This document shows positions 57,074 to 60,780 of a DNA stretch of 64,000 nucleotides, piece by piece (the first letter of the stretch is position 1; every line of letters starts with the position of its first letter). Both the position numbers and the translations under genes were made by a program. The notes beneath the pieces are model-generated. The model saw nothing but the letters and a program-made list of their open reading frames with translations. It did not search any database and was not told the DNA's origin. Source of the DNA: Eledone cirrhosa (lineage: Eukaryota); assembly GCA_964016885.1 (NCBI GenBank), contig OZ024742.1, positions 351,912,001 through 351,976,000 on the forward strand. The letters are read 5' to 3'.

Positions 57074-57737
57074 TATATATATATATATATATTATAAAGA
57101 ATTAATATCTAGTAACATATATATACATACAGATGCATATCATTGCTAGCAAATATATAGGTTTTGTCTTAGTAACTTTGTGGTTCAATGCATGGGGTTG
57201 CAAAACAATAATATGAGAGACGTAAAATAAGAAAATTATAAAATTAACTTACTTACTAAAATATCACTTCCAACTAATTAGTTTCTGGAATGGAATAAAT
57301 ATATTTTCCGATGAAGATACAGAGAAGCATTCCGCCGTCAGGGAGGTCTATTCTCATCTAAGTATCCAGGCAAAGCGTGGACACTGGAAACTTAATAAAC
57401 AATAATTCAGTGGATAGGAAATAGCAAAGCGTGGACTGAATTCCTAGCCATTACTAGATATTAATTCTTTATAATTATCTCCAAATTATTTGTCGAGCAA
57501 TGTTGGCCATGACTGCTGCTATGGTAGCAGGCCGCTGTCTTATTAACAAACCTCTTTCCACTGATTGACCTCGATGTCACGTGATTGATTCTTTTTGAAT
57601 TTGCCACCGACGCAGAGGCAGTGATTTTCTCAATGGCTAGGAATTCAGTCCACGCTTTGCTATTTCCTATCCACTGAATTATTTTTTAATAAGTTTCCAG
57701 TGTCCACGCTTTGCCTGGATACTTAGATGAGAATAGA

Positions 57738-57817
57738 CCTCCCTGACGACGGAATGCTTCTCCGTATCTTCTTCGGAAAATATATTTATTCCATTCCAGA
57801 AACTAATTAGTTGGAAG
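57738..57817 (+). ncRNA. Type I hammerhead ribozyme, canonical core
   Basis: CCTCC-CTGACGA-C-GGAATG...CATTCC-A-GAAA-CTAATTAG-TT-GGAAG; palindromic stem III. Confidence 0.85.
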
Positions 57818-58255
57818 TGATATTTTAGTAAGTAAGTTAATTTTATAATTTTCTTATTTTACGTCTCTCATATTATTGTTCTGCAACCCCATGCATTGGA
57901 CCACAAAGTTACTAAGACAAAACCTATATAGTTGCTAGCATTGATATGCATCTGTATGTATATATATGTTACTAGATATTAATTCTTTATAATTATCTCC
58001 AAATTATTTGTCCAGCAATATTGGCCATGACTGCTGCTATGGTAGCAGGCCGCTGTCTTATTAACAAACCACTTTCCACTGATTGACCTCGATGTCACGT
58101 GATTGATACTTTTTGAATTTGCCACCGACGCAGAAGCAGTGATTTTCTCAATGGCTAGGAATTCAGTCCACGCTTTGCTATTTCCTATCCACTGAATTAT
58201 TTTTTAATAAGTTTCCAGTGTCCACGCTTTGCCTGGATACTTAGATGAGAATAGA

Positions 58256-58335
58256 CCTCCCTGACGACGGAATGATTCTCCGTATCTTCTTCGGAAAATA
58301 TATTTATTCCATTCCAGAAAGTAACTAGTTGGAAG
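58256..58335 (+). ncRNA. Second-unit hammerhead (stem III mutated)
   Basis: Same as 57738 but GAAA-GTAACTAG-TT. Confidence 0.7.
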
Positions 58336-58614
58336 TGATATTTTAGTAAGTAAGTTAATTTTATAATTTTCTTATTTTACGTCTCTCATATATGTATATG
58401 TATATATATATATATATATATATATATATATATATATATATATATATATATATATATATATATATATTATTCATGCTCATATAGGGAGTCAAAATGTTTC
58501 ATAACGTTTCAGGGCCCACTATTGACCCTAATATGTACATTAGCCAGTTGTTTCGGGTCGTAGACAGAGTTTAAAAAATTGGTGAATACATTGTTTGAAT
58601 ATAGTTATTTTTTA

Positions 58615-58680
58615 TTTGATATAGAAATGCATTCTGCAGTACAAGAAACCTTTCATTCCTATAAAATCATCAGTAATGTT
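58615..58680 (-). mobile_element. Degenerate family B HHR copy
   Basis: Minus strand CTGATGA-T-TTT-ATAG-GAA-T-GAAA-GGTTTCTTGTACTGCAGAA. Confidence 0.55.
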
Positions 58681-59574
58681 TGATAAGGTCGTAAGGCCAC
58701 CGTAATGACATGTTACTCATGGCAGAACTGTCTTATTTCGCCTGCACAGGGAAATGGAATGGGCGTAAACGATAGGGAAGGCGAATGAAGGGGGATAGGA
58801 GAAGATTCCAACCAAATGACTGAGCTGGCTGTCTTTAAGACAAGTATCACGTTTGTTAATGTAAAAATAGAGCAAACATTTAATACAGATACGCTCAAAT
58901 TCGACAGATTGATTTCATAGCTCTTTTCTTTCGTTTGCATCCACAGTTTATCTATATATATATACACATTCACACGCAAACAAACAAACATATACACATA
59001 ATACTTACATCTCTTCCTGCTATATCAAGCGTTAACCTAATATATCCCTTCCATATGCTGTACCGTTTGCGTTGTTATATCTGTTTACCTTTTACATACA
59101 TAAATAATACATCTATGTATATATAGTTTTTTAACTATTGAGCGCTTGCCAGCATTTCTACGATTTTGAGTTTTGTTTCGCTTTTTCTACCAGCCGAAAT
59201 ACGAGTCCCGCTGAATTATATTTGTATATATTTATATATATATATATATATATATATATTTTGATTAATTTTAATTGTATATTAATTTTGATTTATTTTG
59301 AAAAATTGGTTGAATTTTACTTGTTCTGCTTATCTTGATATATATATATATATATATATATATATATATATATATATATATATATATATATATTACATAT
59401 ATTTGTATATAATTTAAATATGTATATATATATATATATACATTGTATATATTTATATATTATATATATATATATGTATACATATATATAATGAACATAT
59501 ATGTATGTATTTGTATTTATTTATAAATTGTACACATTTATATATATATATATATATATATATACGTAAGTATG

Positions 59575-59810
59575 TTTTGAATCAGTGAGCGAGTTTGAAG
59601 TTAGAAATATGAGCTTTCACCGTATTTTTGACTAAAGAAATTGTTAGCCTAGCCTGATAGTGGTGTTTAGTACCCTCAGAGAAATGGAAAAAGATGAGTA
59701 TTGACCAATACTCATCTTTTTTCCATTTCTCTGAGGATTCTAAACCCCACTATCAGGCTAACAATGTCTTTAGTTACAAAAACGGTGAAAGGTTATATTT
59801 CTAAATTATC
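59575..59810. mobile_element. Family E fold-back element
   Basis: Arms centred at 59704-59705 (GAGTATTG-AC-CAATACTC). Confidence 0.8.
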
Positions 59811-59943
59811 TCTATTTATATATATATATATATATATATATATATATATATATATATATATATATATATATATATATATATATATATATATATATATATA
59901 TATATATATATATATATATATATATAGAGAGAGAGAGAGAGAG

Positions 59944-60780
59944 AGAATTAGTATATCTACCAACATATGTATACAGATGTATACTCATGCTAGCAAATAT
60001 ATGTTATGTCCTGGAATCTAGTCACACCTTGCTTTTATCCATCCACTGAATGATTATTTGTATATAGGTTCCTAGTGTCCGCGCATTGCCTGGGAACTTA
60101 TCTGAGAATAGACTCCCTGATGACGTAAGGATTTATCTATAGTTGCGTTGCGTAACTATATTTATTCCCTTACAGAAACTAATTCGTTGGAGTGAAAATT
60201 TTAGTAAGTAAGTTAATTTTAAAATTTTCTTATTTTACGTCTTTCATATAATTGTTCTGCATCCCCTTGCATAGAACCACTATGGTACTAAGACATAACA
60301 TATATATTTGCTAGCATGAGTATACATCTGTGTACATATGTTGGTAGATATACTAATTCTCTATATTTATCTCCAAAATATGTGTAGAGCAAAACTTGCC
60401 GAAATGTACTGCTATGCTTCATGGTAGTAGTTAGGCTCTTGTCTTATCACCACTCCACTCCTCACTGATTAATTAACCTCAGTGTCACGTGATTGATTCT
60501 TTAGAATTTGCCACTGACCAAGTAGGCAGTGAATTGTTTCAGTGCCCTGGAATCTAGTCCCCACTTGCTTTTTTCCATCCACTGAATTATTATTTTTATA
60601 TGGGTTCCTAGTGTCCGCGCATTGCCTTGGAACTTAGCTGAGAATAGACTCCCTGATGTCGTAAGGATTTCTCTATAGTTGCGTTGCGTAACTATATTTA
60701 TTCCCTTACAGAAACTAATTTATTTGGAGTGAAAATGTTAGTAAGTTAATTTTAAAATGTTCTTATTTTACGGCTTTCAT
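59944..60780 (+). mobile_element. ORF-less HHR element: inverted 5' segment (59944-60010) plus a 536 nt tandem unit, about 1.4 copies; diverged relative of the 518 nt unit
   Basis: CCTGGAATCTAGTC at 60010 and 60546; HHR cores at 60117 and 60653; shared blocks such as TGTCACGTGATTGATTCTTT, TATCCACTGAA, AGAATAGAC and TTTTAGTAAGTAAGTTAATTTT. Confidence 0.9.
60112..60193 (+). ncRNA. Type I hammerhead ribozyme, canonical core
   Basis: ACTCC-CTGATGA-C-GTAAGG...CCTTAC-A-GAAA-CTAATTCG-TT-GGAGT; perfect 5 bp stem I. Confidence 0.85.

Follow-up and report, generated by a model that had tools for sequence, protein, structure and literature searches.

The window analysed here is a 64,000-nucleotide (nt) stretch of the Eledone cirrhosa genome (contig OZ024742.1 of assembly GCA_964016885.1, positions 351,912,001 to 351,976,000). 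Two elements within it, A (57091-58390) and B (59931-60783), are decayed copies of a dispersed tandem element that has no open reading frame (ORF) and carries one conserved hammerhead ribozyme fold per unit. With a probability of about 85%, we assign them to a retrozyme-type, non-autonomous Penelope-like element (PLE) family that is a variant in the size of its unit, the length of its tail and the build of its ribozyme. The original prediction, made from the letters of the window, had proposed movement in trans by a PLE reverse transcriptase (RT) and endonuclease; this appears likely, and the tail and head-to-head anatomy described below support it better than the argument first given.

Two fixed ends and their pairing

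Each element consists of two arms lying head to head. In element A an inverted arm overlaps a direct arm of 1.8 units by 2 nt, and in element B an 80-nt inverted arm precedes a direct arm of 1.45 units; A and B are 78% alike. The predicted periods of 518 and 536 nt were recovered. The claim of head-to-tail tandems stands insofar as the elements are multimeric, but the arrays in the window reach only 1.8 and 1.45 units. It had also been noticed, correctly, that both direct arms stop at the same site in (TA)n and that both elements open with an inverted arm, whose outer end is the same second site in the two. Overlooked was the key to this anatomy, namely two fixed ends 119 nt apart, here called S1 and S2, and the pairing between them.

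57091..57452, minus strand: element A inverted arm; unit positions 278-518 then 1-121; 3' end at S2 (with tail)
57451..58390, plus strand: element A direct arm; unit positions 97-518 then 1-518 (1.8 units); 3' end at S1 (no tail)
57873..57991, plus strand: 119-nt "tail", from S1 (57872) to S2 (about 57991), read through within the array; contains a covarying hairpin
58388..58467, no strand: (TA)n flank of element A at S1
59813..59946, no strand: (TA)n then (AG)n, at the S2 end of element B
59931..60010, minus strand: element B inverted arm; tail only, 80 nt; 3' end at S2
60007..60783, plus strand: element B direct arm; 1.45 units; 3' end at S1; overlaps the inverted arm by 4 nt
60779..60858, no strand: (TA)n flank of element B at S1

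In the family, the 3' end of an arm falls either at S1, which is the end of the unit and lies 60 nt past the predicted ribozyme cut, or at S2, 119-125 nt beyond S1; the 5' ends vary. Of 128 head-to-head junctions, 112 joined an S1 arm to an S2 arm, and none joined two arms with the same end. The first set comprised 97 distinct junctions (87 S1/S2, none same-ended, and 10 truncated or at the edge of the locus), a count that leaves out seven loci hand-picked as possible exceptions, one S2/S2 case among them. Six of these seven proved to be separate, duplicated or tail-to-tail elements, and at L237, the sole S2/S2 case, the same flank lies inverted on both sides, indicating a later duplication. 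A fresh sample of 40 further S1 termini, taken in list order with a few already sampled ones skipped, yielded 31 junctions (25 S1/S2, none same-ended, 6 other) and 10 single-armed loci. At the 97 joins, the arms overlap by 1-6 nt in 56 cases and by more in 13, are blunt in 4 and have inserts in 24. (TA)4 adjoins 215 of 222 termini, in a sample picked partly by TA-containing patterns.

The published marks of PLE insertions are a tail, an inverted 5'-truncated copy and an AT-rich target (PMC8557442, PMC3846280), and the tail has been described as the span between two RT start sites, with both DNA strands cut and extended in vitro (PMC11167929). Our family shows an inverted 5'-truncated copy next to a partial tandem, and a tail at one end only, longer than the published 30-40 nt.

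The window also supplies a control, a 5'-truncated autonomous PLE at 35410-38992 (ORF at 36832-38529, minus strand) with RT and GIY-YIG domains and an inverted pseudo-long terminal repeat (pLTR). Its CX4CX2C linker is of the Neptune/Nematis type as given in PMC8557442. It has a minimal hammerhead with U3-A8, a 3' untranslated region filled with microsatellite and a 37-nt tail, and its family is young, with 777-amino-acid (aa) open frames and at least 77 copies at 98% identity. The S1/S2 rule held in 10 of 10 two-armed loci of this family, and among 30 loci the partner arm ended at S2 in 10 of 10 classed pairs.

Head-to-head inversions with microhomology also arise from twin priming by long interspersed nuclear elements (LINEs). 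We nevertheless find it hardly credible that an ordinary LINE moved these elements in trans by L1-type twin priming: there is no poly(A), the outer end of the inverted arm is fixed, the start of the direct arm differs from the end of the inverted arm, and the true PLE in the window has the same pattern.

The S2 end carries a further mark in subfamily B. Of 74 S2 ends in this subfamily, sampled partly by a pattern that allows CT, 55 are followed by (CT)4 or more, compared with 0 of 72 subfamily-B S1 ends and 0 of 76 subfamily-A ends; copies in which the start site is read through show no expansion in consensus. This suggests, from the letters of these ends, that (CT)n may be added at insertion, and (CT)n is likewise present at the TCTCT-ATA site of the autonomous window family. 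At 5421-5543, 7224-7335, 19992-20117 and 50185-50279, compound (CT)n(TA)n microsatellites resemble the ends of PLEs and of element B, and stutter at PLE start sites may be a seed of such microsatellites.

The family in the genome

The prediction of dispersed, ORF-less multimers in (TA)n was supported. In the 3.0-Gb host genome each unit query returned more than 2,300 candidates, and the 40 candidates scored per query, spread over many chromosomes, were 91-98% identical to the unit. Exact patterns, whose counts are lower bounds, matched 3,911 S1 termini, 328 subfamily-B S2 termini and 5,277 ribozyme 3' halves (the last pattern misses subfamily A), with no match to any of the three reversed controls. 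There are at least seven subfamilies, with units of 518-553 nt. Six reference units are 70-92% alike, and none has an ORF: read as circles, all six have a longest stop-free frame of 74-93 aa and a longest ATG-initiated frame of 27-67 aa. Their GC content is low (0.36). Within the units and loci examined, no ORF with RT and GIY-YIG lies between pLTRs, as it would in an autonomous PLE. The E-box-like palindrome GTCACGTG, at about unit positions 225-240 (58097-58112), is kept in all six reference units and is a possible internal promoter element. Circular folds of the unit gave z-scores of -3.6 and -7.4 against 30 shuffles, which is in itself no evidence of a circle. Among public sequencing runs, no RNA data set was listed with the family; three contig sets of one sample carry it, but as the genome itself may derive from that sample we did not count these as support.

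Could the copies be mere 3'-end (pLTR) fragments of an autonomous PLE? Their anatomy is that of truncated PLE insertions, the median arm is only 345 nt, and the search for a parent covered few PLE loci. On the other hand, among 158 pattern-sampled arms there are 50 with a length of at least 520 nt, and these align to the repeated unit itself; arrays reach 6.8 units; the flanks examined upstream of 17 arms consist mostly of (TA)n or of unrelated sequence; and a PLE protein match occurs in 1 of 61 loci, apart from the arm. The original prediction had stated that it would fall if the unit were only a lone pLTR; this is not the case among 109 PLE loci (30 GIY-YIG loci, 39 of the window PLE family and 40 further GIY-YIG loci), none of which carries the unit as its own pLTR. 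We therefore regard the fragment explanation as distinctly unlikely. Several candidate partners were rejected in the course of this search. The pair L128/L129, 3 kb apart, is a local duplication in (TA)n; L125, L127, L078 and L264 are mere neighbours, and two of the 109 PLE loci hold the unit in that way.

A second alternative is a repeat propagated at the DNA level, a minisatellite or fold-back spread by recombination and unequal crossing-over, in which the ribozyme is a relic. Local duplications do occur (L128/L129, L237, L239-L242), the longest array, of 6.8 units, shows a dimer-like pattern, and the ribozyme 3' halves are unequally distributed between strands (2912 forward and 2365 reverse), an excess that suggests one or more long tandem arrays elsewhere. 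Such a repeat would not be expected to have fixed 3' ends with variable 5' ends, to obey the S1/S2 rule, to be dispersed over many chromosomes or to covary at the RNA level, and we consider it very improbable.

The window has other features as well. Directly left of element A, a further head-to-head element at 56511-57071, with one arm about 134 nt longer than the other, contains a hammerhead-like motif (CTGAAGA...GAAA, with a palindromic TGATCA, and TA) and has related pieces at 2934-3042 and 19762-19956; it is probably a second family of the same kind. At 60858-60990 the inverted 3' end of the L061 PLE family abuts the (TA)n of element B, so that insertions nest in one microsatellite. Short fold-backs in (TA)n with unequal arms make up a third family (59583-59826, 61545-61738 and 52974-53145), and no hammerhead was seen in those short copies. 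A short interspersed repeat of about 200 nt occurs in two tandem copies at 55850-56150, and 62003-63968 holds long (CAT)n and then (CAA/CAC)n arrays, low-complexity sequence with open frames of more than 500 codons.

The hammerhead ribozyme

Five ribozyme copies lie in the two elements, and one of them, at 57743, alone retains core, helix III and triplet.

57721..57833, plus strand: type I hammerhead, core 57743 intact; 10-nt palindromic helix III; predicted cut after 57812
58239..58351, plus strand: hammerhead copy, core 58261; helix III damaged (G.G clash); homologous cut after 58330
57251..57363, minus strand: hammerhead copy in the element A inverted arm, core 57341; A9 changed to G
60096..60209, plus strand: hammerhead copy, core 60117 intact; helix III weakened, down to 2 bp; predicted cut after 60188
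60632..60745, plus strand: hammerhead copy, core 60653; A9 changed to T; helix III and triplet lost; likely dead

The original prediction placed the four plus-strand cores correctly, together with the helix II exchange of GGAATG/CATTCC for GTAAGG/CCTTAC and the predicted cuts after 57812 and 60188; it missed the minus-strand copy at 57341. Its statement that CTGANGA, the GTT triplet and helix I are kept requires amendment. The first motif reads CTGATGT in the 60653 copy and CTGACGG in the minus-strand copy, and is kept in the others; the triplet is lost at 60653; and helix I has a C.A mismatch in the element A copies. Also absent from that account were an extra C after A9 and an A before G12, which produce a C.A mismatch at the helix II base. 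Among 27 ribozyme copies chosen across clusters, the C is kept in 26 and the A in all 27.

In these 27 copies the predicted covariation is real. Helix II position 2 uses all four Watson-Crick pairs (AU 9, GC 8, UA 5, CG 4), position 5 uses two pair types, and the distal hairpin of loop II covaries too. Overall, 95.4% of helix cells are paired, against 34-51% in slid controls, and none of 500 shuffles did as well, a statistic inflated by the relatedness of the copies; two of five covariation measures were no better than shuffles (41/500 and 346/500). RNAalifold independently predicted helix II and an outer helix I. Grouping 218 distinct ribozyme copies gave nine clusters with at least two members, both core halves are retained in 152 of the 218, and core and pairing are conserved across subfamilies that are only 70-92% alike. 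Pairing between loop I and loop II (GAGAA/TTCTC) is 98.5% complete, with one double change in three sequences; because the same bases covary with the 5' strand of helix I, it is a candidate only. The 10-nt palindrome would give a helix III of 3 bp in a single molecule or 10 bp in a dimer. We infer ribozyme activity from these sequence properties. Rfam reported no hammerhead at gathering score in the whole window, and none among the 33 hits listed at E<=10 for 56400-61000; the long loop II does not match its hammerhead models, a misfit that has no bearing on function.

The build of this ribozyme has precedents. PLE hammerheads characteristically have a base after A9 and a palindromic helix III (PMC4209133), a U.U stands at the helix II base of an active axolotl retrozyme (PMC7229834), and another PLE family of the same genome has T.T there. 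With the minimal PLE hammerheads of PMC4209133 our family shares the extra nucleotide after A9, a helix II that opens with a G-C pair and a palindromic helix III that lends itself to dimers; it differs in the unpaired A before G12, a structured loop II of about 37 nt, an extended helix I, the candidate loop I-loop II pairing and a GUU triplet.

Template, mobiliser and known relatives

If the ribozyme cuts the template RNA, the 5' ends of arms should bear its trace. We scored 244 of 303 arms, dropping 59 for detection bias (first-pass S1 arms no longer than 150 nt, together with S2 arms inside the tail). Of the 244, 46 had their 5' end at -3..+26 of the predicted cut, compared with 9 and 11 in the flanking windows; the corresponding figures were 21 of 124 (3 and 4) for pattern-sampled arms only and 33 of 212 (7 and 10) for second-pass arms, and the excess persisted without same-start pairs (9/41/11). 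In a scan of the whole unit, the densest window began at -2 for all arms and at 0 for pattern-sampled arms, and none of 1000 uniform draws, which ignore the length decay of arms, matched it. Twelve arms end at -2..+4 and four at -9..-3. The excess corresponds to arm lengths of about 60, 580 and 1090 nt from S1 and 180, 700 and 1215 nt from S2. In one reference unit, an insertion of 17 nt displaces some subfamily-C offsets. The autonomous window family gave 4 of 36 ends in the cut window and none in either flank.

Between the arms of a single insertion, the sharing of derived variants is 3-5 times higher than between unrelated copies (9.9 vs 1.9 and 12.4 vs 4.0 per kb), and opposite arms share them as much as units within one arm. 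Monomer position had no effect on relatedness in 53 insertions (10.1 vs 11.3 shared per kb), and the cut junction was free of indels in 113 and 128 read-throughs, so that we reject template jumping with added bases. The lack of a position effect speaks neither for nor against a heterogeneous multimer as the source. This equal relatedness and the indel-free junction fit a circle or a homogeneous multimer and argue against sloppy jumps, and the clustering of 5' ends points to linear cut RNA as the template for part of the copies; we somewhat favour cut RNA as a template.

A number of points weigh against our reading. A target-site duplication is unreadable within (TA)n, the tail of 119-125 nt exceeds the 30-40 nt published for PLEs, a homologous pLTR was found in none of the 109 PLE loci, a small part of about 10,600 GIY-YIG candidates, and in a second PLE family both arms end at one site in 2 of 2 loci, so the S1/S2 rule is not universal. 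The C.A at the helix II base and the GUU triplet may weaken cleavage; eight of nine Xenopus retrozymes failed to cleave in vitro (bioRxiv 10.64898/2026.07.22.740005), and a PLE could do without cleavage in vitro (PMC11167929). The -3..+26 window was fixed only after a first look at the data, and the fresh sample alone gave 2/6/3 (p 0.12), or 1/1/2 for second-pass arms and 2/3/3 without same-start pairs. Both arms of a pair ended in the cut window in 8 of 111 cases, which is not significant (p 0.16). Finally, 5'-end peaks at +6 and +24 fall on AT palindromes, and there is a second hump at -85..-35.

These points lend some force to the idea that the family is moved by PLEs while its ribozyme is idle, the templates being uncut read-through transcripts and the 5' clusters arising from RT pausing at helix I or from palindrome-favoured joining. 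This alternative, which rivals the ribozyme step only, draws on the weak replication of the clustering, on the palindromic peaks and the position of the hump inside helix II, on the 4 of 111 pairs that start at one position, and on the findings that cleavage can be dispensed with in vitro and that no RNA reads lie at the cut site of an anole PLE (PMC11167929). It does not account for the left edge of the densest window, which fell at -2 to 0 unprompted, for the step from four to twelve arms at the cut or the excess kept without same-start pairs, or for the retention of core and pairing across divergent subfamilies. We regard an idle ribozyme as possible but doubtful.

As for the mobiliser, the genome contains at least eight PLE-type ribozyme families, most of which end in a pyrimidine run before TA, and a resident Neptune-type protein is therefore the likely driver. 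The PLE load is heavy, as the GIY-YIG candidates attest, and its hammerheads vary, with U3-A8 cores, T.T or C.A at the helix II base, palindromic helices III of 4-10 nt and tails of about 37, 44 and 72 nt.

We propose that the PLE protein would cut both strands in (TA)n and that each DNA 3' end would prime reverse transcription, with S1 as the start for one end and S2 for its counterpart, on the same RNA or on sister RNAs, after which microhomology would join the two cDNAs. The hammerhead would cut 60 nt upstream of S1 and so make a 5' end off which the RT runs, which we think is probably, though by no means securely, the source of the arm-length excesses. Longer arms could come from RT reading round a ligated circle, to which we give somewhat less than an even chance, or otherwise from a partly cut multimer. 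More speculatively, and with considerable doubt, one Penelope RT/endonuclease dimer might prime both break ends on one ribozyme-processed RNA, its subunits at S1 and S2. The hammerhead would then act as a gate (cut, the RT runs off; ligated, the circle is read round), and telomerase-like RT stutter would write (CT)n and perhaps (TA)n.

The class of non-LTR (long terminal repeat) retrozymes and the PLE hypothesis for it are already published (Cervera and de la Pena 2020, PMC7229834; Li, Clavereau and Pollet 2026, bioRxiv 10.64898/2026.07.22.740005). Like these animal elements, ours are ORF-less tandems in which every unit, a few hundred bases long, has a type I hammerhead (mostly damaged in the window), with low GC (36%), thousands of copies and co-resident PLEs, and the helix II-base mismatch and palindromic helix III have axolotl precedent. 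They differ in unit length (518-553 nt, compared with 170-400 in invertebrates and 51-972 in vertebrates) and in arms mostly shorter than two units; the inverted arm, the tail and the two fixed ends were not found in the available retrozyme accounts. In its available text the bioRxiv study covers 35 species, has no mollusc term and no "tail" or "target site", and leaves the mechanism open. Circles have been demonstrated for published retrozymes, whereas our family is known from DNA sequence, and Xenopus retrozymes show pLTR homology to a parent of the kind that our 109 PLE loci lack.

Endonuclease-positive PLEs (Penelope/Poseidon, Neptune, Nematis, and PAc of PMC11167929) share the partial tandems, the inverted 5'-truncated copy, the one-end tail, the AT-rich or (TA)n target and a hammerhead upstream of two RT start sites; our family differs from them in having no ORF, in its tail of 119-125 rather than 30-40 nt, and in a large hammerhead, with two-part helices I and II, in place of a minimal one. 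Non-autonomous Chlamys elements such as MRC1 are likewise non-autonomous PLEs with multicopy head-to-tail insertions, but they belong to green algae, lack canonical hammerheads and generally match an autonomous family at the 3' end (PMC8557442). The end mark of PLEs is known qualitatively; in the available retrozyme and PLE texts we found neither a count showing S1/S2 pairing without exception nor the mark on a retrozyme, and a search of the literature since 2023 returned nothing combining Penelope-like elements, target-primed reverse transcription, hammerheads and circular RNA.

Both the mobiliser of animal retrozymes and the role of the hammerhead in the PLE cycle are stated to be open, and published support for the PLE link consists of co-occurrence and pLTR homology (PMC7229834, PMC11167929, bioRxiv 10.64898/2026.07.22.740005). 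Here a retrozyme bears the Penelope insertion signature at thousands of sites, beside young and intact PLE ORFs, so that experiments on a 0.5-kb RNA could address both questions. Because two start sites are strictly paired, the PLE mechanism is narrowed towards a coordinated priming at the two DNA ends; should the 5'-end edge hold across the genome, it would be in vivo evidence for cut RNA as a template. Were the dimer and gate proposal true, the genome would preserve, in fossil form, in vivo cleavage by the ribozyme together with the entire retrozyme/PLE insertion reaction.

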